A stretch of 64,000 nt of DNA from Candidatus Bathyarchaeota archaeon. GTDB taxonomy: Archaea; Thermoproteota; Bathyarchaeia; Bathyarchaeales; DTEX01. Both the position numbers and the translations under genes were made by a program. The stretch is from the NCBI GenBank assembly GCA_018396635.1, contig JAGTQE010000005.1, positions 11,325 to 75,324 on the forward strand, in the 5' to 3' direction. The number at the start of each line of letters is the position of its first letter. The stretch's first letter is position 1. The notes under the pieces were generated by a model. That model was not told where the DNA came from. It made no database searches and saw only the letters and a list, made by a program, of their open reading frames with translations. Below, piece by piece: positions 1-61,634 of the stretch.

Positions 1-2871
1 ACAATAGCATACTATAGATTCATCCGAGGTTTTGAAGTGGTCTCCAGCCCAGTCGGCCATTGTCGGTAGCGGATGCTCTGTTAACATATACACGTCTGGA
101 TAGAATGCTACCGCGAAGGAGTTGAAAACCGCCCGTAAGAAATGCTTGTTTTTCCCTCTCAATAAGTATGGTATCTGGAAGCCGTAGAGATTCGGCTGCA
201 TAGAGAAGCCCCCTCTACTAAACCAGTACCTATCGAATTCTGAAGAAGGTATGCTGTACCCGTACTCGTCAGAGATGTAGCGGTTATCCTCATAATCCTT
301 CATTATCCACTCAGCTATCTTTGAGTGTGGATCTATCAGGCTGCATAAAATAAGATGCATAGCGCCTTCCAATGTCTCACGTATCCACCCTATATCCCGC
401 CCACGCCTATCGACTCTCGAAGGGATATATGGCACCCAAGTTCCATCCCTAAGCTTGACCACAGGGCTCCTAATCATGGCTTCAGTAATGCCCGCAAGCA
501 AATCATCTCTATATGCTTCAGCCTCCCTCCTAAGCCTTTCAGCCTCAGGATGATTTATTTCACCTAATATCTCTGCAATAGATTTAAGTCCCCTGTAAGC
601 GTGAGCGTTCGTCGCAATCCAATGCCAGAATTCTCTTACATCCTCTAGAGAGCCGGGAGGAAGGAAACCATACTCAATAACCTTCTTACCATTAATTGTC
701 TTCTTAGTTGCCTTTCTTTCTTCAATTATCCAATTGCATGCCTCGATTAGGTTTGGTGCAACTCTCTTAAGCCACTCTTTATCGCGAGTGTGCTTATAGT
801 GCTCTGCGAAAGCCCATAAAATCCATCCGTGATGCTGACCATAATCTCCACATTCATAGCCTCCGGCGCCGAAGAACACTCCCTTAGCGGTGGAGTATTT
901 TCCAGCCATAACGGCTGTTCCCTGATAATATATGAAGACGTCTAATCTGCGCTCCGCTTCATCGTAGAGCCCCCTCCGGTCAAGCTCGCTTATAACCATC
1001 GCGCTCTCATTAGCGAAAACGCCATAATTAAATGAGCTTACTCTACACATGTATCTCTGTGATCCAGGCTCCTTATCGTCAGTTATATGCACGTGGCTCA
1101 GAAAAGCCTTATAAAAATTGTTTAGCCATTTCTCCGGAATGTCAATCTGCATCCCCTGACTAAGTAGGCTCCTCCAGTATTGAACCGCTTTTTTCTTCTC
1201 CACCTCGAAATCTAAGCTTTTAAGCCTATTTATTTCAAAGTTTTCAAGCGGGGTTATTGAGGGAACCTTGAGATACAATACATGTTTTTCGCCTGGATTA
1301 AGGTTTAAAGTGTATATGGGGGAACCGTCTGAATCTTTAACCTCGCCACGCCCACATATATCCAAAATGTATCTAAGCCTCTTAGCTGGGTGATCTTGGC
1401 AAAGCGCATAAACGAGTCCATCCTCGTATTTAAGTTGCTCCTCCACACCTTTAGCGTCACGCCAATTCCTCTTACATAATGATGATAGTTTAAGACTGAT
1501 GGTTTTCGGAGAGAGACTCTGGGAGAAAAGCGTTATTTTCATCATGCACACTATTGGATCGTCGCCGTCTATCATCTCTTCCCCTTTAAGATCGTCAAGC
1601 AAGTTCTTTAACAGTAATGTTGCAAAAGCTTCCTGCTCAAAAACTACGCCGTCCTCTATCCACTTGGCATGAACTATCGGAAGATACTCATCCTCTAACC
1701 ATCTTTCATCCGGATCCCTATCTGGAAAGCCAAAGCCATAAGTTACGGTATCTCCATCCCAAAGAAATCTATCTGAATACTTCCCCTTCACCCTCAAATT
1801 CCAAAGCTTCGGTATAAAAATTGCACCCCTCGTATCTACCCCAATCTTCTGTCTTCGGCCCTTACATCCTAGAATGAAATGTATGCTCCTCCTCTTTGCG
1901 GGCATTTCTCTCCAGGCCCTTTCAAGGCTCTGCTCGGGCATTTTATCAATCATGTCATATATTGTCGCCAACCTTTTCCCACTTAACACGTCACTATATG
2001 CTCTGAGACTTATATTCTCAGATGATTTTGAGATCAGAACATCGTAGTCTTTTATTAGGATCGCTCTCTCCCTCTCAAGATCCCTCATAGAGAAAGAAAA
2101 GCTGAAGGCGGCTGAGCGGATAGTGACTATCGTTTCATCAAAGCTCTTTGGCTTATCAATGGAGGCATACCATATCTCCGCCCTAATTCCATCGGTTTCG
2201 CCGTCCTTGACCTCTGAGAGCCAAGAATCTTTCGATAAGATTCTTACCCTACTACAATTATTAAGTGGCTTTAAATCTTTTAGCTCGCCATTAAACACTT
2301 CAATAGACCCACTCCAAACCCTCACCTTATCCAGCCCACACCCCCACTCTACAGAGACCTCCATCAACCTCCAGGTGGAATCTGTATAAACCTCAAAACT
2401 CTCGATTTCAGGCAGATCTTTTGGGAAAAGCACCCTAACCTTTAGTGTCCTACGAAAACTCACATCATAATCAGTAAGCTCTGGATACTCCTCTGTAAGA
2501 GGTCTGAACGTGAAGAGCAGTACATTCCCTTCAACCCTCAAATTAAACCTTGCATCCCTCCACAGCCCATTATAGAGGTCATCTATGGGCCCCCAGCCGG
2601 AAAAACCAGCGCCTACATGCTCAAACTTAACTTTAGGCCAATTGCACTGCCAATATTGCACTTTAAAGGCCGCTTCACTTAGCCCTCCAGGTGGATGTTT
2701 AAACCGCATAATTATTGCGTAAATATCTCGCGGGTCGCTCCATAAAACGCCAATTTCACCTGCATTAAACCATGTTTCACCGTATCTTGCTATATTAACT
2801 GGCGCTCCGAGTGTAGGCATGGGAGTGAATACATTCATTGATATGCTACTCGTTATTCCATAACCCTCCAT
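1..2871 (-). CDS. large hypothetical protein, six-hairpin (alpha/alpha)6 glycosidase-like; C-terminus runs off the left edge
   Basis: Missing from the ORF track because no stop lies inside the window. Hand translation of the minus strand from ATG 2871..2869 (MEGYGITSSISMNVFTPMPTLGAP...) stays open for 957 codons to base 1. The distal part has GGYECGDYGQHHGWILWAFAEHYKHTRD and WHWIATNAHAYRGL helices reminiscent of six-hairpin glycosidases. The listed + strand ORFs here are short shadow ORFs. Confidence 0.6.
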   Translation of the reverse strand, partial: MEGYGITSSISMNVFTPMPTLGAPVNIARYGETWFNAGEIGVLWSDPRDIYAIIMRFKHPPGGLSEAAFKVQYWQCNWPKVKFEHVGAGFSGWGPIDDLYNGLWRDARFNLRVEGNVLLFTFRPLTEEYPELTDYDVSFRRTLKVRVLFPKDLPEIESFEVYTDSTWRLMEVSVEWGCGLDKVRVWSGSIEVFNGELKDLKPLNNCSRVRILSKDSWLSEVKDGETDGIRAEIWYASIDKPKSFDETIVTIRSAAFSFSFSMRDLERERAILIKDYDVLISKSSENISLRAYSDVLSGKRLATIYDMIDKMPEQSLERAWREMPAKRRSIHFILGCKGRRQKIGVDTRGAIFIPKLWNLRVKGKYSDRFLWDGDTVTYGFGFPDRDPDERWLEDEYLPIVHAKWIEDGVVFEQEAFATLLLKNLLDDLKGEEMIDGDDPIVCMMKITLFSQSLSPKTISLKLSSLCKRNWRDAKGVEEQLKYEDGLVYALCQDHPAKRLRYILDICGRGEVKDSDGSPIYTLNLNPGEKHVLYLKVPSITPLENFEINRLKSLDFEVEKKKAVQYWRSLLSQGMQIDIPEKWLNNFYKAFLSHVHITDDKEPGSQRYMCRVSSFNYGVFANESAMVISELDRRGLYDEAERRLDVFIYYQGTAVMAGKYSTAKGVFFGAGGYECGDYGQHHGWILWAFAEHYKHTRDKEWLKRVAPNLIEACNWIIEERKATKKTINGKKVIEYGFLPPGSLEDVREFWHWIATNAHAYRGLKSIAEILGEINHPEAERLRREAEAYRDDLLAGITEAMIRSPVVKLRDGTWVPYIPSRVDRRGRDIGWIRETLEGAMHLILCSLIDPHSKIAEWIMKDYEDNRYISDEYGYSIPSSEFDRYWFSRGGFSMQPNLYGFQIPYLLRGKNKHFLRAVFNSFAVAFYPDVYMLTEHPLPTMADWAGDHFKTSDESIVCYC

Positions 2872-2880
2872 TTAACTGCC

Positions 2881-4395
2881 TTATATACTCCATAGAGACT
2901 CTAGATGTTTCCTAATATGCTTGGAGATAACTTCATAGTATTCTTCCTCCCTATCGAGTAAAACTCTCTTAATCCTATCTCTGAAGAGCCATCTTCCATC
3001 TTCCCCTCTAGCCGATAATACTGAGCCGAATGTCACATGAAGAATCTGTCTCGCCTTAGGGTTGTCAAGATATGTCTCCTCAAGCTTCCCGTCTGTGACT
3101 TCTTCTGGCTGCCGGATCTGTGATGGGTCTGCGCTAGTATAATATGATGCCCTATCCTCCCCGAACCTTTGGATACTAAACTTAACAATCTCGCGGAATA
3201 GACTTGGATCGTGCCTCGCTATTATGCGTAGAGACTCTAGATAGCTGGTTCCAGCAGTCTTTAGGTGGATTATGTCGCCAGCTAATCTACCCATTATTGG
3301 GTATATCGAGAATTTATCGCTGCCGGAGTGTATGCTTAGCTTGTATGGTCCAAAGTTTCTGGCTATTAACGCGTGGATCTGGAACGTCCTCTCAAACTCC
3401 CCTAAATCGCCTATATAGTCGACGGCCTTCTCAAATCTGCCAACAAACCTCAGGGCTAGGCTTTGTAAGCTTATTCCTAGCCTCTTAAGCTCCAATGCTA
3501 TAAATAAGTGTTCGATTGGTTTGGTCGGGGTTTCCGTCTCATCAACGGATAGCTCAAGATCGTATCTTCCACCCTTAAACAGGTCATCTAGGAGCTCCTT
3601 CAATTTTAGGGTATGAGCGATTGCAGCAGAATACTTTACAGAAGCTCTGAGGAGATCCTCCCTTAAGAAACATAGTTCCAGGACGACTCTTCCAGCGGGA
3701 TCTTTAACTTCAAAAGTTTTCCCTAAATATCTTTCGAGGATCTCTCTCCCACTACACCTTAAAATTCCCCATGGTAAACGATTAAACTTCTCCTCTAAGA
3801 CATGGATTGGATAATTGTCTGCACCATTATCAACGTACTCTGATGGATCTATTGTATACATTGTGAAGCCCGCCGCAAACGCCTCCTTAACGTCCTCCTC
3901 AGTCTTCAAGTGATCAGCGTCGGCTGCAAAGCCATTCCGATAACCCTCTTGAAAAACCGCCCATGTAACATCATCTATAACTTCTTGAGGTGATCTTAGC
4001 GTGCGCTTCATCTCCCGCACCGACTGCTGGGCGAGGACTGGGAAGAACCTCAAATCACGTACAGCGCGTATATGTCCAGGTGTAGCTAATCCAATGCGAT
4101 CGCCTGTTCCAATGGCGGGCGTTAAACCTATTGGTATTGGCTTGGTATATGGGAAATGTTCGCGTATTTCGGCTGCGTTGTGAGGGTTGCATGGACAAAT
4201 CCTGTAGGTTAAGGATTTATCGAGGGCGCCCTCCTCCTCATGGAGAAAGTTAGCTAAGAATTTTGGGGGATTCTCTGAAGGATATATTATGACGAGCTTC
4301 CGCTCATATCCATCCCTAATCAAGAAGAAGAGAGCGTCATCCTTAATTGAGATTGAAGAATCGTAGACCTTCACCCTGCGTCCCCGTTCCTCCAT
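2881..4395 (-). CDS. tagaturonate/fructuronate epimerase (UxaE)-like protein
   Basis: 504-aa ORF. The size and the GTGDRIGLATPGHIRA motif match my memory of the UxaE family. It lies 9 nt upstream of the glycosidase-like gene on the same strand, and a uxuA gene occurs elsewhere in the window. Confidence 0.5.
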   Translation of the reverse strand: MEERGRRVKVYDSSISIKDDALFFLIRDGYERKLVIIYPSENPPKFLANFLHEEEGALDKSLTYRICPCNPHNAAEIREHFPYTKPIPIGLTPAIGTGDRIGLATPGHIRAVRDLRFFPVLAQQSVREMKRTLRSPQEVIDDVTWAVFQEGYRNGFAADADHLKTEEDVKEAFAAGFTMYTIDPSEYVDNGADNYPIHVLEEKFNRLPWGILRCSGREILERYLGKTFEVKDPAGRVVLELCFLREDLLRASVKYSAAIAHTLKLKELLDDLFKGGRYDLELSVDETETPTKPIEHLFIALELKRLGISLQSLALRFVGRFEKAVDYIGDLGEFERTFQIHALIARNFGPYKLSIHSGSDKFSIYPIMGRLAGDIIHLKTAGTSYLESLRIIARHDPSLFREIVKFSIQRFGEDRASYYTSADPSQIRQPEEVTDGKLEETYLDNPKARQILHVTFGSVLSARGEDGRWLFRDRIKRVLLDREEEYYEVISKHIRKHLESLWSI

Positions 4396-4525
4396 TAGCC
4401 TTCTAAAAGCTGAAACCTTATCCTTCAGCCCAAATTCCCTCCTTTAACCCAACAACTCTTTTACAGATCTGAAGGATTAATTTTGAGTTATTGTGCTACG
4501 TTTTGCTGGCTAACAATATATAAAT

Positions 4526-6106
4526 GTGATGGACAAACAATTATTTTTAATGTCGACGGAAGTATGGATCCAGCCAATAGATCCGCTTGGGCATATGGCG
4601 TTATCCTTCCTATTCTCCCTAGCACCCATACTGCTGCTTATACTTCTCCTATGCCTCTTTAGGAAGCCTGGGTGGGTGGCGGCGTTAGCATCCTCTGTGG
4701 TGTGCTTTGTCATCTCAGTCACCGTATATGGGGCTCCTATGCAAGTGGCTCTCTTAAGCTACGCTTATGGGCTGGTTTTTGGGCTTTGGCCCATATCTTG
4801 GATAATTCTAAACGCCATATTTCTGTATAGGGTGTCTGAGAGGTGCGGCTGCATAGAGAGCCTTTCTAAGTGGATTGGGGAGAACATGCCTAACGATAGG
4901 GGGCTATATGCCCTCTTAATCTCATTCCTCTTCGGAGGGCTTATAGAGGGAGTCGATGGATACGGTTTTCCAATAGCCATATCGTCCACACTGCTCGCTG
5001 ATCTAGGGTTTAATCCCATTGACGCCGTATGCATATCACTTTTGGCAAACACCGTCACGGTTCCATTCGCAGGCTTAGGTGTACCTATAGAAACCCTCGG
5101 CGTAGCGTCGGGGCTAGATGTCAAGGACATATGCCTATACCTCTCATCCCACCTAGCGATGATATCAGTGGCCACGGCGCCTCTAATCATTCGCATGGCG
5201 TCTGGGCGGGGAGCCGCGAGCAGGGCATATGAGGCTAGCTTTGTGGCCGGGCTATCGTTGGGAGCAGTCATTTACCTAGTGTCTGCCTATATCGATCCGC
5301 GCATATCGGGGATACTTGCACCCCTAGCCTCCATGATACTAACAATAATCTATGTTAGGGTTAGGTTTAAGGCGAAGATTAAGTCTACAGGTTTCAGGGG
5401 CTGGCTTCCATGGATAATTGTCTCAGCACTTATGGGAACAGTCAGCTTCATTGGGCTGCATAAATTGTTTGCTGTAAAGATTTATGTTCCGGGTTTGCAT
5501 GGAAGAGTCTTCATACCACTATATAGTGTTGCCTACAGCGCCATATATGAGATACAGCCATTAGCCCATGGAACACTGGCCTTAATCTCCGCCATAATCG
5601 TGGCCCTCATCTTTAACTTGAAGCCATCAGTAATGCTGTGGCTCTACATAGATTCTCTAAGGAGGATGAAGAACGCATTTCTAACCATAGCGGAGATACT
5701 GGGCTTAGCCTTCCTCATGAACTACACGGGCCTATCCCTAACACTAGGATACTCTCTGTCACATGTTGGGCCGCTGTTCCCAGCCCTCTCAGGCTTCATA
5801 GGTTGGATTGGAACCTTTGTCAGCGGTTCGGAGACGGGCTCAAACGCCCTCTTCGGAAAACTTCAGAGAATAGCAGCCGAGCTCTCCGGCCTCCCACCCC
5901 ACTTAACTACAAGCCTTAACGCTGCAGGAGGAGTTCTGGGGAAAATCGTCTCGCTCCAGAGCATAGCGATAGGCCTATCGGCGACTGGGCTGAGGAGGGA
6001 GGAGGGTGTAATCTTGCGTAGGCTGATCGGCTATAGCCTAGCCCTAACGCTCATGCTGGGTTTGATGGGATATATACAGGCATATATCTCAACTCTGAGC
6101 ATATAA
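4526..6106 (+). CDS. L-lactate/glycolate permease family (LctP) transporter
   Basis: 526 aa and polytopic. It has a GSETGSNALFGKLQ signature like the LctP/LldP family. The start may be ATG 4529 or a later Met. Confidence 0.75.
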   Translation: MMDKQLFLMSTEVWIQPIDPLGHMALSFLFSLAPILLLILLLCLFRKPGWVAALASSVVCFVISVTVYGAPMQVALLSYAYGLVFGLWPISWIILNAIFLYRVSERCGCIESLSKWIGENMPNDRGLYALLISFLFGGLIEGVDGYGFPIAISSTLLADLGFNPIDAVCISLLANTVTVPFAGLGVPIETLGVASGLDVKDICLYLSSHLAMISVATAPLIIRMASGRGAASRAYEASFVAGLSLGAVIYLVSAYIDPRISGILAPLASMILTIIYVRVRFKAKIKSTGFRGWLPWIIVSALMGTVSFIGLHKLFAVKIYVPGLHGRVFIPLYSVAYSAIYEIQPLAHGTLALISAIIVALIFNLKPSVMLWLYIDSLRRMKNAFLTIAEILGLAFLMNYTGLSLTLGYSLSHVGPLFPALSGFIGWIGTFVSGSETGSNALFGKLQRIAAELSGLPPHLTTSLNAAGGVLGKIVSLQSIAIGLSATGLRREEGVILRRLIGYSLALTLMLGLMGYIQAYISTLSI

Positions 6107-6131
6107 GTCAAAACATTCGGTTTAGAGTTAA

Positions 6132-7376
6132 TCATGACGCAAATATCTTTATGAGGGCCTCCAGGTCCGCTTCTATCTCAACTGGCTTAGGGAATTGCCT
6201 TAAAACAATATCTGGATCTTTCAGTCCATGCCCGGTGAGTATGCAGACAACAGTCTCATCCCTATCTATTAGCTTCATGTCCGCAAGCTTTATCAATCCA
6301 GCTATAGCCGCCGCGCTTGCCGGCTCAACGAAAATGCCCTCTCGCCTAGCTAAAAGCGCCTGGGCGCTCAGTATCTCCTCATCGGAGACCGTTTCAGCCA
6401 GTCCGCCGGACTCCTTAATGGCTTTAACTGCCTTCTTCCAGTTAACCGGCGAACCTATCCTTATGGCTGTTGCAATGGTTTCCGGCCTCTCAACAAACCT
6501 CATCTCCTTTAAACCCCCCTTAATGAAGTTAGCTATTGGCGCAGCACCTTCAGATTGTATTCCAATCATTTCGGGAAGCTTCTCTATTAAGCCAGCCATA
6601 TACAGCTCCTTGAAGCCCTTCCATATGGCGCTGATATTGCCAGCATTCCCAACGGGAACTATAACCTTATCTGGCACCTTATGGCCCATCTGATCCCATA
6701 TCTCGAAGGCTATTGTCTTCTGCCCCTCAAGCCTATACGGATTTATCGAGTTCAATAAATATATTGGTTGCGTTAAGCAAAGCTCCTCAACGATTCTAAG
6801 AGCTTCATCAAAATTTCCCTTGACCTGAATTACCCTAGCTCCATGAATTATCGCTTGGACAAGCTTGCCGAACGCCACTTTACCTGAAGGGATTAGCACA
6901 ATGCATTCCAACCCGGCTTTAGCCGCATATGCCGCTAAGGAGGCGGAAGTGTTACCTGTTGAGGCGCATGCAACCCTCTTCATGTCAAGTTCTAGAGCCT
7001 TAGTTACTCCAACAGTCATTCCCCTATCCTTGAATGACCCGGTTGGATTCTCGCCCTCATTCTTCACATAGAGGTTCTTTAGGTTTAATTCGCATCCAAG
7101 CCTAACACACCTGTTCAGGCTTGTCCCGCCTTCGCCCAAACTCACCATTTTACTACTATCGCTTATTGGTAGCAGCTCTATGTAGCGCCAGACGGTTAGG
7201 GGTCTCGAAGCCCACCTTAGAGATATTTCAGGGCTCATTAAATCATTATTATATTCAACTGAGAGGAGTTCTCCACAGCTAGAACACTTATAAATGATTG
7301 TGTTTGGAGGAAACTCAGCCCCGCATCCTATACATTTTAGGCGATAATGCCAGGCCATAGATCTTCTCCCATTCAT
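6132..7376 (-). CDS. thrC: threonine synthase
   Basis: N-terminal Cys4 ribbon (CIGCG...CSSCG). It carries the canonical PLP lysine motif NPTGSFKDRG, then ASTGNTSASLAAYAA and the phosphate loop PVGNAGNISA. Confidence 0.85.
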   Translation of the reverse strand: MNGRRSMAWHYRLKCIGCGAEFPPNTIIYKCSSCGELLSVEYNNDLMSPEISLRWASRPLTVWRYIELLPISDSSKMVSLGEGGTSLNRCVRLGCELNLKNLYVKNEGENPTGSFKDRGMTVGVTKALELDMKRVACASTGNTSASLAAYAAKAGLECIVLIPSGKVAFGKLVQAIIHGARVIQVKGNFDEALRIVEELCLTQPIYLLNSINPYRLEGQKTIAFEIWDQMGHKVPDKVIVPVGNAGNISAIWKGFKELYMAGLIEKLPEMIGIQSEGAAPIANFIKGGLKEMRFVERPETIATAIRIGSPVNWKKAVKAIKESGGLAETVSDEEILSAQALLARREGIFVEPASAAAIAGLIKLADMKLIDRDETVVCILTGHGLKDPDIVLRQFPKPVEIEADLEALIKIFAS

Positions 7377-7467
7377 CCTATAAATGCTGAGACTGGCCTT
7401 CCCACCTATAAAATTATTTCAGGGATCTTAAAATAATAATGGTGAATTAGCTTCGAGGGCGACAAGC

Positions 7468-8862
7468 GTGCTTGCATGTACTGAGTGCGGGGAAAAGCTG
7501 GAGGAGGACTATCCGAGAGATAAATGCCCAAAATGTGGCGGGAAGGGCACTTTAGAGTATCAAATGGACCTTGAGGAGCTGAGGGCTGCCGAGTTTACAG
7601 GGGAGTTCTCATTCTGGAGGTATAGGGCGCTTCTCCCAAAAGTAAAGAATTATGCGACTTTACATGAGGGTGGAACTCCACTATATAAGGCTGAGCGCCT
7701 AGCAAAATATATTGGTCTCCCAAAATTATACTTGAAGGATGAAACCAGGAACCCTACAAACTCCTTTAGAGATAGGGCCGCCGCACTGATGGTTTCAAAT
7801 ATGCTAGATTTTGGCTACACAGCTGCGATATGTGCCTCAAGCGGCAATATGGGTGCATCCCTATCCGCCTACTGCGCCAGGTACGGCATAATATGTCATG
7901 TTATAGTACCCGAGTACGTTGATATGGGTAAGATGGCTCAGATGATAGTGTATGATGCTGTGATTGAGGAGTATGGTAAAACCGTTGATGAAGCGATAGA
8001 GAGGGCTGAGAAGATAGTTGAGGAGACTGGCTGGTATCAGGCCACATCAGCGCTGAATCCACTCGTCATTGAAGCACAGAAAACAGTGGCTTTCGAAATA
8101 GCCGAGCAGATAGGTGTCCCAGATGTTATTGTTGTCCCAATGGGTAGCGGGGGAACAATATACTCTATATGGAAAGGCTTCAGGGAGCTTAATGATCTAG
8201 GTAAAGTAAAGGGTATGCCAAGGCTTATTGGAGTCCAGTCGAGCGGGTGCCCGCCTATAGTTAACGCTTTCCTTGAAAGGGAGGGCGAGCAGGAAACGCT
8301 ATGGACTAAGGCCACAAGCATATTCGTCCTAAACCCATTCAAAAAGAAGCTTGCCATAAAGGCCATAAGGGAGACTGGGGGCCTCGCCCTCTCAGTATCT
8401 GACCAAGAGATGCTTGAAGCTGAGCGGGAAATTGCCAAGATGGAGGGACTATTCGCTGAGCCAGCCAGCTCCGGGACCATAGCGGCCCTTAAGAAGCTCG
8501 CTCAGGAGTCAGCCATCGGCAGAGATGAGAACGTCGTATGTATAATGACTGGGAGCGGGCTTAAGGCAACAGATGTCCTACAGGCCTTATCTAAAAAGCG
8601 TAAAATAGCCTTATTAGAGGCTGAGTTTAGCACAAAGGAGAAGATACTTCGCATAATATCGCGGAAGAAGACTTATGGATATGAGATATGGAAGGAGCTG
8701 GGCAGAGTTATGACTAAGGCAGCCATATACCAGCATCTAAACGACCTAAGGAATAGGGGCCTAATATCTGTTCAGGTGAAGGATGGGAGAAAATATTTCA
8801 CAATAACCCAGAGAGGTAGGAGGGTGCTTGCCGCCATAGACGAAGTAAAAGCACTTCTTTAG
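7468..8862 (+). CDS. threonine-synthase-like (fold-type II PLP) domain lacking the Schiff-base lysine, fused to a C-terminal PadR-like winged-helix domain
   Basis: GTG start and Zn ribbon CTECG...CPKCG. The motif reads NPTNSFRDRA, with codon AGA at 7768..7770 where thrC has Lys. It retains SSGNMGASLSAY and PMGSGGTIYS. The C-terminal ~75 aa, KKTYGYEIWKEL...IYQHLNDLRNRGLISVQVKDGRKYFTITQRGRRVL, is PadR-like. Confidence 0.75.
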   Translation: MLACTECGEKLEEDYPRDKCPKCGGKGTLEYQMDLEELRAAEFTGEFSFWRYRALLPKVKNYATLHEGGTPLYKAERLAKYIGLPKLYLKDETRNPTNSFRDRAAALMVSNMLDFGYTAAICASSGNMGASLSAYCARYGIICHVIVPEYVDMGKMAQMIVYDAVIEEYGKTVDEAIERAEKIVEETGWYQATSALNPLVIEAQKTVAFEIAEQIGVPDVIVVPMGSGGTIYSIWKGFRELNDLGKVKGMPRLIGVQSSGCPPIVNAFLEREGEQETLWTKATSIFVLNPFKKKLAIKAIRETGGLALSVSDQEMLEAEREIAKMEGLFAEPASSGTIAALKKLAQESAIGRDENVVCIMTGSGLKATDVLQALSKKRKIALLEAEFSTKEKILRIISRKKTYGYEIWKELGRVMTKAAIYQHLNDLRNRGLISVQVKDGRKYFTITQRGRRVLAAIDEVKALL

Positions 8863-8896
8863 ACTTGATATGCCAGTTAACAGCAATTTTTAAATA

Positions 8897-8940
8897 ATAG
8901 TTTAGTTACAACTATACTAATCAACTTATAACTATACTAA
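8897..8940. promoter_or_regulatory. candidate operator: imperfect palindrome ATAGTTTAGTT-AC-AACTATACTAA plus an extra AACTATACTAA half-site
   Basis: AACTATACTAA occurs at 8910..8920 and 8930..8940. The palindrome at 8897..8920 matches the reverse complement of the 11261..11284 site at 22/24 positions. Its right edge is 28 nt from ATG 8948. Confidence 0.55.
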
Positions 8941-8947
8941 TGAGGGC

Positions 8948-9481
8948 ATGCGCATGGAGAAAAGAAGGGAGAGTCTCTCCAGAAGAGTGTCATTTCTGGG
9001 AATCGCCATAGCGCTCGTATACGTGGCCACCTCCATCTCAATTCCCATGCCTAAACCATTAGGCGTCTGGCATATTGGAGATATAGCGTCATTTATCGTC
9101 GCCATATTCTTCGGCCCACTTATCGGAGCACTTGCATGTGGGGTTGGCGCAATGCTCTTTGACATATGGAATCCATTATGGGGCAGCAGTTTCATTATAT
9201 GGGCTCCGGCAACGCTTATAATTAGGGGGTTCATGGGCTTCTTGCTCGGGAAGATGAGGAAGATTATGCCGAATAAGCCCAGATTCTCAGAGATATTGGC
9301 TATGATAATTGCCTCTATTCAAAAAAATGTTTGTTACTTCCTTTACGATTACGCCCTTTTTGGATCAGTAGCCTTCTTAGATTTAATAACATTTTTCCCA
9401 TTAAGTGCACTCGACATAATTGTAGCGGTGCCGTTAATATCCTCAATACGAAAGATACTAAAAGTTGAGTATTACTGCTAG
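8948..9481 (+). CDS. ECF-transporter S-component-like small membrane protein
   Basis: 177 aa with about 5-6 TM segments. FFGPLIGALACGVGAMLFDI and APATLIIRGFMGFLLG are typical of ECF substrate-capture proteins. It is a paralogue of 11315..12070. Confidence 0.6.
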   Translation: MRMEKRRESLSRRVSFLGIAIALVYVATSISIPMPKPLGVWHIGDIASFIVAIFFGPLIGALACGVGAMLFDIWNPLWGSSFIIWAPATLIIRGFMGFLLGKMRKIMPNKPRFSEILAMIIASIQKNVCYFLYDYALFGSVAFLDLITFFPLSALDIIVAVPLISSIRKILKVEYYC

Positions 9482-9494
9482 CCGAGGTGTCATA

Positions 9495-10211
9495 ATGAAT
9501 ATAATAGATTCCCACACCCATCTCGGAACTTTCCCACTTTTCAATGTTAGTATGGATTCTGCTGAGATGATATCAATAATGAATCAATATGGAATTAAAA
9601 TCAGCGTAGTCTTCTCCTTGCCAAATGAGCTAACATTAGACGCGGTGAAAAAATATCCTGAAAGACTTATCGGTTTAGTATGGATTAATCCGCATGAGGG
9701 TAACTTAGCCCTACAAAAAGTGGATAGGGCAATTAACGAGTGGGGGTTTAAAGGGATAAAGATGCATCCCCTCCTAGATTCTTTCCTCCCGGATCAGGAG
9801 ATAGTTTATCCAGTAATGGAGAGAGCCCGAAAATATAGGGTTCCAATATTATTTCACTGTGGACATCCACCATGGTCTCTTCCATGGCACTTCAGCAACC
9901 TAGCTGAGGTATATCCCGATGTTACAATTATTTTGGGTCACATGGGCCATGGGCATATAGTGTATATTAATGGCTCGATTGATGTTGCGAGAAAACATGA
10001 AAATATAATCTTAGAAACATCAGCGATGCCCATGCATAGGAAGATTAAAGAGGCTGTTGAGAAGGTTGGCGAGGACAGAGTCATTTATGGATCAGATATG
10101 CCATTTGGGCATCCCTCATTCGAGATAAGGAAGGTCGAGGTTTCCGGTCTATCAGAGAAGCAGATTGAAATGGTTTTAAGTGTAAATGCACGCAAAATAT
10201 TTCGCTTATAA
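9495..10211 (+). CDS. amidohydrolase-family metal-dependent TIM-barrel hydrolase
   Basis: MNIIDSHTHLG N-terminus (HxH metal motif), plus later GHMGHGH and GSDMPFGH. I moved the start from the track's 9465 to ATG 9495, which sits just after the upstream stop. Confidence 0.7.
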   Translation: MNIIDSHTHLGTFPLFNVSMDSAEMISIMNQYGIKISVVFSLPNELTLDAVKKYPERLIGLVWINPHEGNLALQKVDRAINEWGFKGIKMHPLLDSFLPDQEIVYPVMERARKYRVPILFHCGHPPWSLPWHFSNLAEVYPDVTIILGHMGHGHIVYINGSIDVARKHENIILETSAMPMHRKIKEAVEKVGEDRVIYGSDMPFGHPSFEIRKVEVSGLSEKQIEMVLSVNARKIFRL

Positions 10212-10269
10212 AAGCATCGTCATGACGCAATGAAAATATTTATTTAGCGAATATTCTAGTGATTTTTGT

Positions 10270-11220
10270 ATGGCAGCTTCTTTAAAAGATGCTTTAGAAA
10301 AAACTAGTGAGTTTATCTCCACAGCCATAGGAAGGTATGGCAACAATCTTTTCGGATCCATTGTCTTTGGCAGTCTCGTTAAAGGGACCTGGCGTAAGAG
10401 CAGTGATGTCGACATAATATTACTATTTAACAAGTGTAACTACTCGAGAAGTGTGAGTTTTTACGGAGACCTAAAATTTGAGGTTTACAACATGCCTTTA
10501 AAGGTATTCTTCTCGCCTTTTTCCGGTGATGGAAAAAATCTTTTCTTTGACATGTTCCGCCTACAAGTGCTGAGAACCGGAAAGATTCTTTATGAGAGAG
10601 ACAATTTATTGAGCCAACTATTCACCAAACTGCGTGAACAAAGAATCTCCCGCAGATATTTAGATGAAGCATTGAGTAAGTTCTATAATTTAATAAATGC
10701 TGCTGAAATATACCTTAGTAGAGGGCGCATTGAGAAGGCCGAGTTAAGTTTAAGGGATTCTTCAATTAACCTTGCAAGGGCATTGTTGATGAAAATAAAT
10801 ATCCCTGAAATAAATACTCCTAGACTACTGATCCCACATTTACGTGAAAGGTCTCCAGAGCTTTATGAAGTAATTAGGGAAGTATATGGGTTAAATTATG
10901 TGGGGAGAAATGAAGCCGAGACTAGAATTAGAGAGGTTAAAGAGACGCTAAATAATATTAAACGTAGGTTTAAGAGAAATATTAGACTTAAGGGAGTTAT
11001 CGACATGGTGGAGAATGAGTTATTAAGCGCCGAAGACTGCCTAGAAGACGGCGACTACGACTCAGCAATACTACAGGCAGAATTCTCTCAATCAATACTC
11101 ATAAAAAATCCATTTATGCGTAATGAATATTGGTTACATACTTCCAAGCCGAATATTGAAAGGAGAGACATAAAAGAATGTATCGGACTTCTAAGAGAGA
11201 TTAAAGAGAAGTATTTATGA
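10270..11220 (+). CDS. nucleotidyltransferase-domain protein with long helical C-terminal region
   Basis: GSIVFGSLVKGTWRKSSDVDIILLF is a minimal Pol-beta-type NTase motif (GS...DxD). The C-terminal ~200 aa are predicted helical and contain one RLLIPH (Rx4H) match. Confidence 0.65.
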   Translation: MAASLKDALEKTSEFISTAIGRYGNNLFGSIVFGSLVKGTWRKSSDVDIILLFNKCNYSRSVSFYGDLKFEVYNMPLKVFFSPFSGDGKNLFFDMFRLQVLRTGKILYERDNLLSQLFTKLREQRISRRYLDEALSKFYNLINAAEIYLSRGRIEKAELSLRDSSINLARALLMKINIPEINTPRLLIPHLRERSPELYEVIREVYGLNYVGRNEAETRIREVKETLNNIKRRFKRNIRLKGVIDMVENELLSAEDCLEDGDYDSAILQAEFSQSILIKNPFMRNEYWLHTSKPNIERRDIKECIGLLREIKEKYL

Positions 11221-11260
11221 GAGCCCCTTGGCTAAGAAGAGCAGTTAAGAAAAAGCTTTA

Positions 11261-11284
11261 TTAGTATAGTTGTAACTATACTAA
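11261..11284. promoter_or_regulatory. candidate operator: perfect palindrome TTAGTATAGTT-GT-AACTATACTAA
   Basis: 11-bp perfectly complementary arms with a 2-bp spacer. The right edge is 31 nt upstream of ATG 11315. It shares the AACTATACTAATCA core with the 8897..8940 site. Confidence 0.6.
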
Positions 11285-11314
11285 TCAGATTCAACTGAAC
11301 ATGGAGGTTTATAA

Positions 11315-12070
11315 ATGCCTGAAGAAGCCAAAGCACCTGAGAGGAGACCGACATCATTAAACCTCATATTTGCCGCGATCTCAACTGCTCTAGTATGTAT
11401 TGCAACCATGTTCTTTAGCATGTATGTTCCGGCGACTAGGGGCTTCTTTAATATAGGTGAGTCTATGGTTTACCTATCAGCCCTACTTTTCGGGCCGTTT
11501 GTTGGGGCTTTTGCTGGCGGTGTTGGCTCAATGCTCGCCGACATACTGTTAGGCTACACGTATTACGCTCCGGCAACATTAGTGATTAAGGCATCAGAGG
11601 GCTTTATAGTCGGCTATCTGAGTAGGCGTAACCCTAAGCTTAATAGGGTTGGCTGGAGAACGCTTACAACAATCTTAGCGGTCGTTGCTGGAGCGCTATT
11701 AGCGGTCATCGGCTCAGCCTACTATAGCGGTGAAGTTGAGCTGACTTTAGGGCAAGCAATAATACCACTCTACATTCCGGAACTATTCTGGTTTATATTG
11801 AGCCTTATTGTTACAGCATCCATAATTGTGGTAGGTTTAGTCACAGAACCTGAGGCCGGCTGGACAATACTCTCACTGATGGTTGGCGGCCTTGCGATGG
11901 TTCTAGGATACTTCATCTATCAGATGTATCTTTTGTTCCCGCTCTTCGGCATAGAGGCGATAGCTGTGGCCGAAATACCAGTTAATATAGGGCAGATGAT
12001 TATAGGCTTAATAATAGCAACACCGGTGGCAAAAATCATAAAGAGGGAATTCTCCATAGGCGCCAAGTGA
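11315..12070 (+). CDS. ECF-transporter S-component-like membrane protein
   Basis: 251 aa and polytopic. LFGPFVGAFAGGVGSMLADI and APATLVIKASEGFIVGYL align with the 8948..9481 product. Confidence 0.6.
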   Translation: MPEEAKAPERRPTSLNLIFAAISTALVCIATMFFSMYVPATRGFFNIGESMVYLSALLFGPFVGAFAGGVGSMLADILLGYTYYAPATLVIKASEGFIVGYLSRRNPKLNRVGWRTLTTILAVVAGALLAVIGSAYYSGEVELTLGQAIIPLYIPELFWFILSLIVTASIIVVGLVTEPEAGWTILSLMVGGLAMVLGYFIYQMYLLFPLFGIEAIAVAEIPVNIGQMIIGLIIATPVAKIIKREFSIGAK

Positions 12071-12142
12071 AAACTATATAACCTTTCAACTCCTAGCTCA
12101 GAGGACGGAGGGAACCATCTATTAAGGGCGCAGTCTGAAACT

Positions 12143-12850
12143 CTACTGTTTATCTGGCATATATTGTGCCAATATCATCGCATGATCCTTATCGTATGGT
12201 TCTAAGTGTATGACCTGATATATTTGGAAGCCATTCTTCTCAAGTATTGCTATCTCCCTCTTATATATCTCGCTCGGCTCTTTAGTGACGTCTATGCTCC
12301 TAGCCTTTATGGCCAGCATTATCCAGCCGCCCTTCTTAAGAAATATTTTTGCGTTGTCAGCTAATATTTGGGCTTGCTCCGGCTGGGCTATATCACAATA
12401 TATCATATCAACCTTCCCAACAATATTAGCGTATTTCTCTGGAAATCTGGCATCCGCCAGAATTGGCGACATATTAGGCCTATACTTGCAAACATTATCT
12501 ATGAGCTCTTTTAGGGGTCGGGGAGCAAACTCTATGCAGTATACGTGCCCCTCCTCGCCGACTATGTCTGATACATGGCTTGCCGTAGTCCCAGAGGCTG
12601 CGCCAAGATATAGAACCTTGTATCCGGCTTTGAGGGGCAGCATCTTTAAGCCTTTAAGTATAGCTGCCGCTATCTTGCTCCTATATGGATCCCACAACCT
12701 ATATTCCGCATCGCCATACTTTATTAGGCGCTCGCCGTAAACATCCCTTCCCGGAGCCAGGTTCTTTGAGGCTATCCTATGCGATCCATCCTCAAGGGTT
12801 GCCCTATACACTCCATCAAACTTTGGAAGTGGCTCAACTTTAACGCTCAT
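12143..12850 (-). CDS. flpA: fibrillarin-like rRNA/tRNA 2'-O-methyltransferase
   Basis: It has the SAM motif VLYLGAASGTTASHVSDIV and is the size of archaeal fibrillarin. It lies immediately downstream of nop5. Confidence 0.9.
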   Translation of the reverse strand: MSVKVEPLPKFDGVYRATLEDGSHRIASKNLAPGRDVYGERLIKYGDAEYRLWDPYRSKIAAAILKGLKMLPLKAGYKVLYLGAASGTTASHVSDIVGEEGHVYCIEFAPRPLKELIDNVCKYRPNMSPILADARFPEKYANIVGKVDMIYCDIAQPEQAQILADNAKIFLKKGGWIMLAIKARSIDVTKEPSEIYKREIAILEKNGFQIYQVIHLEPYDKDHAMILAQYMPDKQ

Positions 12851-12857
12851 AGATCAC

Positions 12858-14066
12858 TCACCTACGCTCCTTAGGCCTAGCCTTCTTCTTCGCCTTAACT
12901 TTAGGTGGGCTTGGATACTTCTCCTCTATCTCCTTAACTCTCTGCATGAGCTCCTCCTTAAGCTTATCGCCTATATAGCTCCCTGTGAAGGCGTCGGTTC
13001 TAGCAGCTATGCAGAGCTTGCCTGCCAGGGCTCTCGCAATCTTACCCCTAAGCCACTTCTTAGCCCTGAAGATTAGGGAGTGCTGGAATATTATGCCATG
13101 TTTAGGCGGCTTGGAGCCTGTTCTAAGGGCCCTGAAAAGGGCTTTTTCAGCGCCCAAAACCTGAACTGTGCTGGCGGGCATCTTGGCGAGGTTTTCCAGG
13201 CTGCCGGCGATGGCTATAAGTCTAGCGCCGACAGACGGCCCGGCTACAGCCCTCAGGTTTGGCGCAACATCCTCCATGATCTCATCTATATATTTCTCAA
13301 GGTTCTCCCTAGCCTCATAAAGCTGAAGAATGTTTTTCGAAAGTCTTCGAATCTGCTCTATATCCATGTCCTGTAGGTCCGCACCCATAGAGGCTCTAGC
13401 CGCCTCATGAATCTGGGCGGCCTTATTTTCCGGGAAACCCTCCTTTCTAAGCCTCTCAACGGTGAAGTTGTCTCTACGCCCCAAAGTGTAAACTAGCTTA
13501 GCATATGTTTCGTGCCTATCCACTAGGCGGCCTAGCTCCGGGAAGTGTATGCCATACCACTCACGGAGCCTGCTCATGAAAAGGTTTAGTGTCTGATCTA
13601 AGTCGTCGAGTGCGTGGACCGCTTGAACGACAAGCAGATCCCTCTTCTCAGTAGCCTTCTTAATCCTGAGCTTTGAGAGCTCTATTGTCACATCACGTAT
13701 CCACTGATTTATCTCCGAGGGTTTACTTATGAAGCCTATCTCAACGCCCAGCTCACCCATATTCTCACGTATCTTCTCACTTACTTCAACTAGGGTTCCA
13801 GCCTCGGCGTTAACTTTAAACTCCTCTCTTATAGTATTCGCCAGGTCTGGGTTGTCAAAGAGAAAATCCGCATACTTCTGTTCCCTAAGCCTACGGATAA
13901 GTCTCCTTATCTCCGGTATGGGTTTACCCTGCTCCAGCGTGAAGAGCTTCTCAGCTATTTTAACTGGATCTTTATCAAAGACTTCCTTATCCACCAGCTC
14001 ACCGTTCTCGTTTAGGCATAGAATCCCCATAACGCTTGGTATAACTGCAATCCTCAATTCTTCCAC
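12858..14066 (-). CDS. nop5: C/D box sRNP protein Nop5 (Nop56/58)
   Basis: NOP domain GPSVGARLIAIAGSLENLAKMPASTVQVLGAEKALFRAL...PKHGIIFQH and a basic KK-rich tail. It forms an operon with flpA. Confidence 0.9.
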   Translation of the reverse strand: MEELRIAVIPSVMGILCLNENGELVDKEVFDKDPVKIAEKLFTLEQGKPIPEIRRLIRRLREQKYADFLFDNPDLANTIREEFKVNAEAGTLVEVSEKIRENMGELGVEIGFISKPSEINQWIRDVTIELSKLRIKKATEKRDLLVVQAVHALDDLDQTLNLFMSRLREWYGIHFPELGRLVDRHETYAKLVYTLGRRDNFTVERLRKEGFPENKAAQIHEAARASMGADLQDMDIEQIRRLSKNILQLYEARENLEKYIDEIMEDVAPNLRAVAGPSVGARLIAIAGSLENLAKMPASTVQVLGAEKALFRALRTGSKPPKHGIIFQHSLIFRAKKWLRGKIARALAGKLCIAARTDAFTGSYIGDKLKEELMQRVKEIEEKYPSPPKVKAKKKARPKERR

Positions 14067-24055: not shown

Positions 24056-25441
24056 ATGTCAGGGGAGATTAAGATTAGAGAGGTTGAGACCAGAAGAGTT
24101 GAGGCTAGGCGAATAGGAATCCACAGCCATGTAACAGGCCTCGGATTAGATAAGAACTTAAGGGCTATTGATGTAGCCGATGGCCTTGTTGGACAGAAAG
24201 AGGCTAGGGAAGCTGCCGGCATAATAGTCCACCTGATTAAGCAGGGTAAGAGACCAGGCCATGGCCTACTCCTCGTCGGGCCTCCGGGGACTGGGAAGAC
24301 AGCTATAGCCATTGGCATGGCTAGGGAGCTAGGCCAAGACGTGCCCTTCGTGGCCATATCAGGCTCAGAGATCTATGGGTTAACTATCAGGAAGACCGAG
24401 TTCCTTAGGCAGGCCATTAGGAGGGCTATTGGCGTTAGGATTAAGGAGACTAAAGAGGTTTATGAGGGCGAGGTTGTTGAGTTAGAGGTTGAGAAGGAGC
24501 CATATCCATACAATCCATATATTCAGATCGCAACCGGTGCGCTCATAACTCTAGCGACCAAAGATGAGACTAAGACCCTTGAGGTTGGAGAAAGGATAGC
24601 CAATAAGCTCCTAGAACTGCCAGTGAGGATTGGGGATGTCATAGAGATTGATGCTGAGACTGGATGGATAACTAAGATAGGCAGGGCTGCTGGCAGGGGC
24701 ATAACCTCAAAGGGTAAGACTGGCGAGTACAGAGTTGCCAGAGTCGTTGAGAGGCCAAGCGGGCCTGTTAGGAAGACTAAGACGATAACACACACCGTCA
24801 CCCTACATGACATAGACATAGCAAACATAAGGCTGCATAGAGGCCTACTATTCAGGGAGGAGGAGGTCTCAGACGAGATCAGGCAGAAGGTCGACGAGTA
24901 CGTGAATGATCTCATTAAAGACCATAAAGCTGAGCTTGTTCCAGGAGTACTATTCATCGATGAGGCGCACATGCTGGACGTCGAATCCTTTGCATTCTTA
25001 AGTAGAGCCCTAGAAGAAGAGTTCGCCCCGGTGCTCGTCCTAGCAACGAATAGGGCAATAACGACTGTTAAGGGTACGGATATAAAGTCTCCGCATGGGA
25101 TACCAATAGATATGCTTGATAGGCTGCTCATAGCGAGAACAAGGTTCCCAACAAGAGACGAGATAATGAGGATTCTTGATATAAGGGCTGAAGCCGAGGA
25201 CCTAAAGATATCTAAGGAGGCGCTGGAGATGCTCACGGACATAGGCGAAAAATACTCTCTGAGACACGCATCCCAGCTAATGCTTCCGGCTAAGGCCGTT
25301 GCTGAGGCCATGGGAGACAGCATAGTCGAGCCAAAGCACATAGAGCGCGTAAGATCACTCTTCATAGACACGAGGGAGTCGGTGGAATACTTAAAGAACG
25401 AACTTGCTAAAGACGCCTTCCTAGCAGAATTCTTAAAGTAG
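24056..25441 (+). CDS. TIP49 / RuvB-like (RuvBL1/2-type) AAA+ ATPase
   Basis: GLVGQKEAREAAGIIV...LLLVGPPGTGKTAIA (Walker A) and VLFIDEAHMLD (Walker B) are separated by a ~170-aa OB-like insertion, as in eukaryotic pontin/reptin. The protein is 461 aa. Confidence 0.85.
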   Translation: MSGEIKIREVETRRVEARRIGIHSHVTGLGLDKNLRAIDVADGLVGQKEAREAAGIIVHLIKQGKRPGHGLLLVGPPGTGKTAIAIGMARELGQDVPFVAISGSEIYGLTIRKTEFLRQAIRRAIGVRIKETKEVYEGEVVELEVEKEPYPYNPYIQIATGALITLATKDETKTLEVGERIANKLLELPVRIGDVIEIDAETGWITKIGRAAGRGITSKGKTGEYRVARVVERPSGPVRKTKTITHTVTLHDIDIANIRLHRGLLFREEEVSDEIRQKVDEYVNDLIKDHKAELVPGVLFIDEAHMLDVESFAFLSRALEEEFAPVLVLATNRAITTVKGTDIKSPHGIPIDMLDRLLIARTRFPTRDEIMRILDIRAEAEDLKISKEALEMLTDIGEKYSLRHASQLMLPAKAVAEAMGDSIVEPKHIERVRSLFIDTRESVEYLKNELAKDAFLAEFLK

Positions 25442-50156: not shown

Positions 50157-50288
50157 TCACCACAATGTTAATAATGATGCCATTAATGCTACAGGCCTAT
50201 TCCTATTAATATTTTTCTTAAACTATAACGCTTCTATGAAACACGCTTAAGTTACAGAAAGCATCTCCTAAATATGGAGACAATAGTT

Positions 50289-51308: not shown

Positions 51309-51340
51309 CCATTCTTCTCCTGCGCTTCAGTCTTTTAGTT

Positions 51341-51817: not shown

Positions 51818-51852
51818 GGGCTATCACATCCATGCTGAGCAAGCGCATAAAC

Positions 51853-58788: not shown

Positions 58789-58794
58789 TGGGCC

Positions 58795-59313: not shown

Positions 59314-59346
59314 GAGAGAATTAGCATGATTATTGGGTGAAGGAGA

Positions 59347-60336: not shown

Positions 60337-60367
60337 TCATTTTGTGGTGACCTCTAGTTTGAGCGGC

Positions 60368-61630: not shown

Positions 61631-61634
61631 CGCT

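Follow-up and report, generated by a model that had tools for sequence, protein, structure and literature searches.

A stretch of 64,000 nucleotides from a Candidatus Bathyarchaeota genome (contig JAGTQE010000005.1, positions 11,325 to 75,324), hereafter the window, encodes next to its threonine synthase gene (thrC) a second ThrC-like protein that has lost the catalytic lysine and carries a C-terminal PadR-type winged helix-turn-helix (wHTH) domain. The best explanation overall, to which we assign a probability of about 55%, is that this fusion protein is a ThrC-derived, non-catalytic repressor of B6-vitamer uptake responding to pyridoxal 5'-phosphate (PLP) or another B6 compound. Its domain architecture, the dispensability of the lysine within a conserved PLP pocket, the synteny with genes for S components of energy-coupling factor (ECF) transporters, and the presence of a promoter-proximal palindrome are computed results. 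From these we infer DNA binding, repression and not activation, dimerization, a PLP or B6 ligand for the sensor, and a B6 substrate for the transporter. An enzyme-derived ligand sensor and regulator had already been proposed in a first-pass annotation of this DNA, and every computational test run supports that proposal. The divergent gene pair and the parts of the fusion gene are as follows.

6132..7376, minus strand: thrC, genuine threonine synthase of 414 amino acids, divergent from the fusion gene
7377..7467, no strand: spacer of 91 bp between thrC and the fusion gene, with no candidate operator
7468..8862, plus strand: fusion gene for a ThrC-like pseudoenzyme with PadR-type wHTH, proposed ligand-sensing regulator of 464 amino acids, GTG start
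7468..7560, plus strand: N-terminal four-Cys zinc ribbon (C4, C7, C20, C23)
7657..8553, plus strand: fold-type-II PLP domain, residues 64-362
7768..7770, plus strand: codon AGA for Arg101 at the column of the Schiff-base Lys, in NPTNSFRDRA
8560..8628, plus strand: flexible linker, residues 365-387
8632..8856, plus strand: PadR-type winged helix (α1-α2-α3-β-β) with a C-terminal helix, residues 389-463, identified by Pfam, AlphaFold2 (AF2), and Foldseek; recognition helix AAIYQHLNDL

The first-pass annotation had read 6132..7376 as a normal threonine synthase gene with an NPTGSFKDRG motif, and the gene 91 bp away on the opposite strand as a paralogue with zinc ribbon and fold-type-II PLP domain, in which the AGA codon at 7768..7770 puts Arg in place of the Schiff-base Lys and to which a PadR-type wHTH has been added at the C-terminus. 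All of these assignments are borne out. The map of open reading frames (ORFs) and a TIGR00260 score of 373 bits (cut-off 167) identify the first product as ThrC; it possesses the motifs NPTGSFKDRG, with the Schiff-base Lys kept, ASTGNTS, NSINPYRLEGQKT, and PVGNAGN, and the residues concerned correspond in alignment numbering to K61, T88, N154, S155, R160, and N188 of Thermus thermophilus ThrC. The fusion protein is 40% identical to it over 412 columns, zinc ribbon included, and the four cysteines of that ribbon are invariant in 59 aligned members of the fusion family. Pfam recognizes the PLP domain as PALP (E-value 4e-77), and Arg101 aligns exactly on Lys61 of T. thermophilus ThrC (1UIM), the lysine of the invariant SFKDR motif. 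Residues 393-455 match Pfam PadR (PF03551) with an E-value of 2.4e-11 and 43.9 bits (gathering cut-off 27) over profile positions 1-74 of 75. An AF2 model based on 59 homologues has a mean predicted local distance difference test score (pLDDT) of 86.6 and consists of a ThrC-like core, a disordered linker (pLDDT <50), and an α1-α2-α3-β-β-α4 module. When this model is submitted to Foldseek, the top matches are ThrC structures, with 34-39% identity in the alignments and a TM score (TMt) of 0.82-0.85. For the C-terminal 80 residues folded alone, the best matches are the PadR-like proteins 4ESF, 6ABQ, and LmrR (TM score 0.80-0.82, root-mean-square deviation 1.8-2.2 Å), with 7WJP also among them. 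Profile searches and structure prediction thus recover both the ThrC core and the PadR module. It is noteworthy that the fusion protein reaches 213 bits with TIGR00260, above the thrC cut-off of 167, and so this cut-off fails to separate the pseudoenzyme from a real ThrC.

Loss of the lysine is a property of the family. Arg occupies the Lys column in all 120 closest homologues (59-100% identity). From a search of 1.84 billion representatives at 50% identity, the best 150 were analyzed for this column and for a wHTH domain. Among the representatives classed as wHTH-bearing (n = 81), the column holds Leu (18), Arg (17), Ile (16), Lys (6), Val and Thr (5 each), Met (4), Phe (3), and once each Ala, His, Asn, Ser, and Tyr; Lys is found in 69 of the 71 representatives classed as having no wHTH. 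Four of the six Lys-bearing cases are proteins of 614-622 amino acids scored at threshold, and clear fusions of normal length with both Lys and wHTH are only P0122 from a Bathyarchaeota and P0128 from a Lokiarchaeota. The remainder of the PLP pocket is strongly conserved in 71 fused representatives, namely G126, G228, D102, and R103 in all 71, T361 and E331 in 70, G226 in 67, and N127 in 64. The carboxylate-binding S-x-G-N loop is mostly retained as well (S or T in 52, G in 71, and N in 64 of the 71). A new invariant Lys was sought in the PLP domain of a 59-sequence alignment and none was found; K90, K155, K205, and K366 are all conserved columns of ThrC too, and a relocated catalytic Lys was rejected on that ground. 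Another nearby lysine at the Schiff-base position, which the first-pass annotation had named as fatal to its proposal, is not evident, Arg itself aligning on K61. Throughout the family, therefore, the Lys is dispensable and the PLP pocket is conserved, and a pocket kept while selection discards the catalytic residue is the signature of a binding domain, not of an enzyme. The product of 7468..8862 is very probably a non-catalytic regulator and not a threonine synthase.

A bifunctional protein, such as RbkR or BirA, might retain PLP catalysis with Arg or another residue substituting for Lys and bind DNA in addition. The strongly conserved pocket, the few members with Lys, and the score above the TIGR00260 cut-off would all suit such a protein. 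However, across most of the family the column is filled by Leu, Ile, Val, Met, Phe, or Thr, which can neither form a Schiff base nor act as the general base that all fold-type-II PLP enzymes require, and no invariant Lys has arisen in its stead; we regard dual function as highly improbable.

Downstream of the fusion gene, four genes follow on the same strand.

8948..9481, plus strand: ecfS1, ECF-transporter S component 1 of 177 amino acids; PF07155, E-value 4.7e-20, 72.7 bits against a cut-off of 26.7
9465..10211, plus strand: Amidohydro_2-family protein; PF04909, E-value 2e-28; overlaps the ecfS1 stop by 17 nt
10270..11220, plus strand: nucleotidyltransferase-domain protein; Pfam Polbeta/NTP_transf_2
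11315..12070, plus strand: ecfS2, ECF-transporter S component 2 of 251 amino acids, conserved syntenic partner; PF07155, E-value 6.8e-34, 117.8 bits against 26.7

Loci for the comparison of gene order were collected by searching genomes, metagenomes, and assemblies; in four others, the sequence stops too close to the fusion gene for its neighbour to be judged, and L009 and L010, which represent the same Pyrococcus horikoshii gene, were counted once. A PF07155 gene adjoins the fusion gene in 29 of 39 informative loci, in three orientations, and it does so in all 24 Bathyarchaeia-like loci with enough flanking sequence. In the loci L001-L005, thrC on the minus strand and the fusion gene on the plus strand are followed directly by an ecfS2 orthologue that encodes a membrane protein of 250 amino acids, whereas in the window a block of three genes, ecfS1 with the Amidohydro_2 and nucleotidyltransferase genes (8948..11220), is inserted between the fusion gene and ecfS2. 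L006 has a nucleotidyltransferase gene at the corresponding place and then an S component. In more distant loci, the S-component gene is divergent from the fusion gene (L007 from Sifarchaeum, L039, L051, and L070) or convergent with it (L035 and L092, Odinarchaeota), and the fusion proteins of these six loci have Leu, Ile, or Met at the Lys column. A linkage that survives such rearrangement across phyla indicates a functional connection between the fusion protein and the S component. The 17-nt overlap makes it probable that the Amidohydro_2 gene is co-transcribed with ecfS1, and this family could be a second member of the regulon. An Amidohydro_2 gene is also found divergent from a distant fusion gene in L041 (3715..5022, minus strand), a locus unrelated to that at 9465..10211 on the plus strand of the window.

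The head-to-head arrangement with thrC, to which the first-pass annotation had drawn attention, exists in the window but proves to be secondary, being limited to the closest subclade (the window, L001-L005, L012, and L013), and the conserved partner is the S component. The arrangement would acquire a meaning if the protein were an amino-acid sensor. Non-covalently bound PLP and an amino acid, for instance threonine, homoserine, O-phosphohomoserine, serine, or a similar one, would form a stable external aldimine that is unable to turn over and switches DNA binding, and amino-acid supply would thereby be tied to thrC and to an importer. Such a function agrees with the descent of the domain from ThrC, with the head-to-head position in this subclade, and with the largely preserved carboxylate-binding loop. 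General enzymology teaches that enzymes of fold type II trap external aldimines once their Lys has been exchanged for another residue, and the MocR-type regulator GabR works in this way with GABA. Nevertheless, we consider an amino-acid ligand of this kind unlikely, as the adjacency of thrC is confined to one subclade, the thrC spacer has no operator, and the residues that bind the phosphate of O-phosphohomoserine have all been replaced. In addition, the conserved target is an HmpT/PdxU-family ECF S component, a class known for vitamins and not for bulk amino acids, and P. horikoshii and other Thermococcales keep the fusion gene in an unrelated context. With regard to the phosphate ligands, alignment to T. 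thermophilus ThrC gives the replacements K61R, T88M, N154S, S155A, R160V, and N188S in the fusion protein. We take T88, N154, S155, R160, and N188 (1V7C) to be the residues that bind this phosphate in canonical ThrC; in the product of the neighbouring thrC, all five are canonical.

The spacers in front of both S-component genes contain a palindrome that is a candidate operator.

8898..8919: candidate operator O1, TAGTTTAGTTACAACTATACTA, one mismatch; directly after the TATA-like TTTTTAAATAA, upstream of ecfS1
8918..8941: second, weaker site, 20 bp downstream of O1, with an exact half-site AACTATACTAAT at 8930..8941; stops 6 nt short of the ecfS1 ATG
11262..11283: candidate operator O2, perfect palindrome TAGTATAGTT-GT-AACTATACTA; abuts AAAAAGCTTTAT, 31 nt upstream of the ecfS2 ATG

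A position matrix from 24 sites describes the palindrome as the 22-mer TAGTwwAGTT-RY-AACTwwACTA with 16 near-invariant positions and fixed TAGT..AGTT and AACT..ACTA. Within the window the full palindrome occurs twice where chance would give none, and the exact 12-mer AACTATACTAAT occurs four times, always in the spacers upstream of ecfS1 (8863..8947) and ecfS2 (11221..11314). When 797 kb of related loci were scanned together with the window at up to four mismatches, 32 sites were obtained, 31 of which are located immediately downstream of the fusion gene or just in front of the S-component gene. Several loci have paired sites 17-26 bp apart, and in L001, L002, and L004 these are tandem at 20 bp, as in the window. 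Immediately next to the palindrome is an AT-rich cgAAAgTTTTATA-type box that resembles a TFB recognition element (BRE) with TATA box, and the ATG of the S-component gene follows 1-60 nt further on, in several loci after only 1-12 nt. This short distance fits a transcription start just past the palindrome, with leaders that are short or absent. At archaeal promoters, a protein bound between TATA box and start site blocks the recruitment of transcription factor B (TFB) and RNA polymerase, and the palindrome, situated between the TATA-like box and the predicted start, thus looks like the operator of a repressor. Its dyad symmetry agrees with binding by a dimeric wHTH protein, and ThrC enzymes of the short form are dimeric. 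Taken together, these data make it probable that the fusion protein controls the adjacent S-component gene through the palindrome.

The three spacers in which the first-pass annotation had proposed to look for DNA binding differ in this respect, since candidate operators are present in 8863..8947 and 11221..11314 but not in 7377..7467. The latter contains no half-site AACTATACTA at up to two mismatches and no full palindrome at up to three mismatches. With nothing convincing there, or in front of the fusion genes of about 40 loci, thrC was rejected as a demonstrated target. The palindrome could also fold as a hairpin (z = -2.9), and no Rfam match at an E-value up to 1 was found in 7300..12100. 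An RNA element was rejected, because the palindrome is situated past the TATA box but ahead of the predicted start and because its half-sites drift independently in L004, both of which make a DNA operator the better reading. As side observations, the operator was duplicated along with the inserted block 8948..11220, and in L016 the operator is followed by a gene (2402..3319) for a protein of 305 amino acids in which PF07155 covers only residues 150-299, the S component being extended here by a membrane region at its N-terminus.

The distant S-component-linked loci L007, L035, L039, L051, and L070 have palindromes of their own, for example TTATTCAAGT-gaaa-ACTTGAATAA in L035, and no common operator motif was derivable across these five. 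In L035, L051, and L070, the intergenic palindromes or repeats differ (TTATTCAAGT-gaaa-ACTTGAATAA, AAACTTATATAAGTTT, doubled TATATATAGGGTC, and CCTATATATAGG) despite a near-identical YQH recognition helix. In Thermococcales (L009-L011, around 3410..7335), an orthologue of the fusion gene, with Arg at the Lys column, begins 5 nt after the gene for aCPSF1/FttA (KH and beta-CASP domains), which itself follows that for proteasome beta. This arrangement looks operon-like, and no ECF S component is nearby. One could therefore argue that the palindrome is the site of another regulator or a mere promoter element, that the fusion protein has a different role, perhaps linked to nucleic acids, and that the adjacency reflects co-expression or shared metabolism. 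The Thermococcales context, the nearly constant helix facing different candidate sites, and a link between protein and site that is drawn from sequence would be in line with this. Nevertheless, 31 of 32 palindrome matches in about 800 kb fall at the junction of fusion and S-component genes, the linkage outlasts inversions of gene order across phyla, a dyad-symmetric 22-mer suits a dimeric wHTH protein, and no other regulator gene is conserved at these loci. An unrelated function of the palindrome and the protein is, in our view, quite improbable.

What the S components transport is suggested by their relatives. The only Protein Data Bank sequence that the products of ecfS2 and ecfS1 match is 4HZU_S, which is HmpT/PdxU2 (E-values 1.7e-11 and 1.9e-4, respectively). 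The substrate bound to HmpT/PdxU2 of Lactobacillus brevis was identified as pyridoxamine, and E41, H84, Q87, Y120, N140, and Q143 are conserved residues of its pocket (PMC4860826). Of the three B6 transporters known from prokaryotes, PF07155/COG4720 accounts for two, PdxU and PdxU2/HmpT, and both the transport of B6 and the regulation of this transport are recognized gaps in what is known of vitamin metabolism in prokaryotes (PMC9997740). In bacteria, pdxU is part of PdxR regulons (PMC5320631). Among 120 ecfS2 homologues, the motif FN[IV]GES, corresponding to E41 of HmpT, is present in 85 and GY, corresponding to Y120, in 110, and N-x-[GA]-Q occurs in 118, although its match to N140 and Q143 assumes a five-residue shift in a weak second alignment segment. 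The match to 4HZU_S, membership of PF07155, the precedent of the PdxR regulon, and the pocket motifs make a B6 vitamer the leading candidate for the substrate. Hydroxymethylpyrimidine or another small heterocycle is possible, and the odds that ligand and substrate both belong to the B6 family are a little short of even.

We therefore envisage a one-component regulator in which a flexible linker connects a non-catalysing fold-type-II ThrC domain with a winged helix of PadR type. The ThrC-like core would dimerize as short-form ThrC does and so present two wHTH domains, and the pair would bind the 22-bp palindrome, which takes up the interval from the BRE/TATA box to the start of ecfS1 and ecfS2. 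Occupation of this interval would block the recruitment of TFB and RNA polymerase and cause repression. PLP, a PLP adduct, or a B6 vitamer would be held reversibly in the Lys-less pocket and report the status of the cofactor; since the Schiff-base Lys is missing, PLP could bind only reversibly, as a concentration sensor needs. If the regulated S components of the HmpT/PdxU2/PdxU family (PF07155) import a B6 vitamer, the net logic would be that uptake is switched off in a B6-replete cell.

Several observations weigh against this model. Ten informative loci are without an S component, namely those of Thermococcales (L009-L011) as well as L034, L040-L042, L046, L066, L093, and L094, and the family may therefore have other targets. 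Genes for B6 metabolism (pdxS, pdxT, and pdxK) were not seen near the examined loci, and tblastn with an approximate Bacillus subtilis PdxS query gave no match in 821 kb, which is a weak negative. A motif scan of the 64-kb window for EcfA and EcfT detected no ORF with a Walker A and LSGGQ signature, although a shared EcfA/A'/T module could be encoded elsewhere in the genome. As for the substrate, Lys and Glu stand at the positions of H84 and Q87 of HmpT, S components of RibU type and others are likewise members of PF07155, and hydroxymethylpyrimidine was the first substrate predicted for HmpT. Concerning the site, it is co-location that assigns the palindrome to the fusion protein, and in about 40 loci neither palindrome nor half-site lies upstream of the fusion gene, and the assignment thus lacks the support that an autoregulatory site would give. 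The phosphate-ligand columns are already variable in the nearest Lys-bearing relatives, and their replacement thus argues only against ThrC-like substrate binding and tells little about the ligand. Finally, a Bathyarchaeial subclade (L030, L031, and P0122) and the Lokiarchaeal P0128 keep the Lys (NPTNSFKDR) together with the wHTH. In L030 (765..2156) and L031 (4436..5821), the gene for such a Lys-bearing fusion adjoins a transporter gene preceded by a related palindrome, recognized by eye in L030. Such members may be reversions from Arg, requiring one transition, or may have retained an ancestral state. Their existence means that Lys loss is not the mechanism as such; it is typical of the family without being obligatory.

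The survey of archaeal genomes for the fusion and its neighbours, advised by the first-pass annotation, reveals a large archaeal family in which the S-component neighbour is conserved. The closest relatives are found in metagenome-assembled genomes (MAGs) of Bathyarchaeia, with up to 85% identity, and further members occur in Loki-, Hel-, Odin-, Sif-, and Promethearchaeota, Aigarchaeota, Thermoprotei, MAGs labelled Methanomicrobia, and Thermococcales, including the cultured P. horikoshii, P. abyssi, and Thermococcus onnurineus. A rough neighbour-joining tree of the PLP domain groups the fused proteins and contains Arg-rich and Leu/Ile/Val subgroups. The recognition helix (A/T)(A/V/I)YQHL is almost constant, with YQH in nearly all subgroups, HQH in Pyrococcus, and YQQ in L014.

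The claim that the architecture is uncharacterized stands, as full-text literature searches yielded no paper on a ThrC-PadR wHTH architecture or its characterization; nevertheless, a protein family model already captures it under an enzyme name. NCBIfam NF004170/PRK05638, "threonine synthase" with model type equivalog, spans the fused architecture from end to end. The proteins of P. horikoshii and T. onnurineus score 831 bits, across the wHTH, and 787 bits, respectively, over the whole profile of 442 positions, and an Odinarchaeal fusion protein scores 428 bits. With 403.5 bits over residues 2-456 (profile positions 2-440 of 442), the fusion protein of the window stays just under the cut-off of 421. 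By these scores, the window protein represents a sister clade of NF004170 and not a member by the NCBI criterion, and NF004170 is the profile of the Thermococcales branch of the Lys-less fused family. Its name asserts an enzymatic function that Lys-less members cannot have. New here are the S-component partner, the palindromic candidate operator with its place in front of the S-component genes, and the match of both S components to HmpT/PdxU2. For the fusion gene, annotations of archaeal MAGs and calls of threonine prototrophy are likely to be wrong, and metabolic reconstructions can be corrupted. If the family does consist of PLP-sensing transcription factors, thousands of "threonine synthase" genes, among them the NF004170 matches, would be misannotated regulators.

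As for the remainder of the window, a fibrillarin and Nop56/58 gene pair (12143..14066, minus strand) lies immediately downstream of ecfS2 and helps to anchor the synteny, since L003, L004, and L006 also have this pair after the locus. A eukaryote-type TIP49/RuvB-like AAA+ ATPase (PF06068, E-value 4e-131) is encoded at 24056..25441 on the plus strand. The regions 49296..53544 and 55497..64000 form an amino-acid biosynthesis neighbourhood that includes ilvD, an acetolactate-synthase-like thiamine pyrophosphate enzyme, and ilvC. On the minus strand are genes for homoserine dehydrogenase (50289..51308), a stand-alone ACT-domain protein (51341..51817), and methylene-tetrahydromethanopterin dehydrogenase (MTD, 49296..50156).

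Compared with known threonine synthases (TIGR00260; 1UIM, 1V7C, 2ZSJ, 2D1F, and 6CGQ), the fusion protein shares the fold, the zinc ribbon of the neighbouring thrC product, the PLP phosphate loop, N87, and the Thr at the pyridine nitrogen. It differs by the absent Schiff-base Lys, the replaced ligands of the O-phosphohomoserine phosphate, and the added linker and wHTH. The latter resembles the short PadR subfamily (BCE3449, 4ESF, and LmrR) in combining a wHTH with one C-terminal helix. PadR proteins are small and stand alone with the wHTH at their N-terminus, whereas here the whole module is appended to a sensor of 380 residues. The products of ecfS1 and ecfS2 belong to the same Pfam and COG family as PdxU and HmpT/PdxU2 (4HZU chain S), with recurring motifs that match E41, Y120, and, if the alignment is shifted, N140/Q143. 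They differ from HmpT by low identity, by the Lys and Glu in place of H84 and Q87, by the 85 additional residues of ecfS2, and by the lack of EcfA or EcfT genes nearby.

Vitamin regulators built from a DNA-binding domain and a domain of the vitamin's own metabolism are familiar from Archaea, where RbkR (riboflavin) and ThiR (thiamine) replace the riboswitches of bacteria. Both control genes for biosynthesis and transport of their vitamin, and the fusion protein may be placed alongside them, although vitamin, sensor fold, and DNA-binding domain all differ and RbkR is still an active kinase. Literature searches found no description of an archaeal B6 regulator of the RbkR/ThiR type. It is possible, if on balance not probable, that the fusion protein represents the first PLP-sensing transcription factor of Archaea and an ancient family of TACK, Asgard, and Thermococcales lineages, in which the ThrC fold became a reversible PLP receptor after losing its Lys and whose regulon reveals a missing archaeal transporter of B6 vitamers, an HmpT/PdxU-like ECF S component.

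Of the bacterial systems, MocR, PdxR, and GabR come closest, as in them, too, a PLP-enzyme fold has been turned into the effector domain of a transcription factor with a wHTH. PdxR is a sensor of PLP whose regulons include the PF07155 gene pdxU, and the same logic is proposed here. The conceptual likeness to MocR/PdxR seen in the first-pass annotation therefore holds for function but not for construction, because both defining domains, the GntR-type wHTH and the fold-type-I domain, are absent and Pfam gives PALP followed by PadR. The bacterial MocR proteins consist of an N-terminal GntR-type wHTH and a fold-type-I aminotransferase domain in which the Schiff-base Lys is kept; in contrast, the archaeal fusion has a C-terminal PadR-type wHTH and a fold-type-II ThrC sensor with zinc ribbon from which the Lys has usually been lost. 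To our knowledge, enzyme-derived PLP sensors are known only from bacterial MocR/PdxR (fold type I with GntR), and an independent archaeal version of fold type II with PadR would clearly illustrate convergence, with an enzyme that uses a cofactor recruited separately to sense it. The locus supplies a testable regulator, operator, and transporter together, and the presence of the family in the cultivable and genetically tractable Thermococcales makes the hypothesis directly testable.

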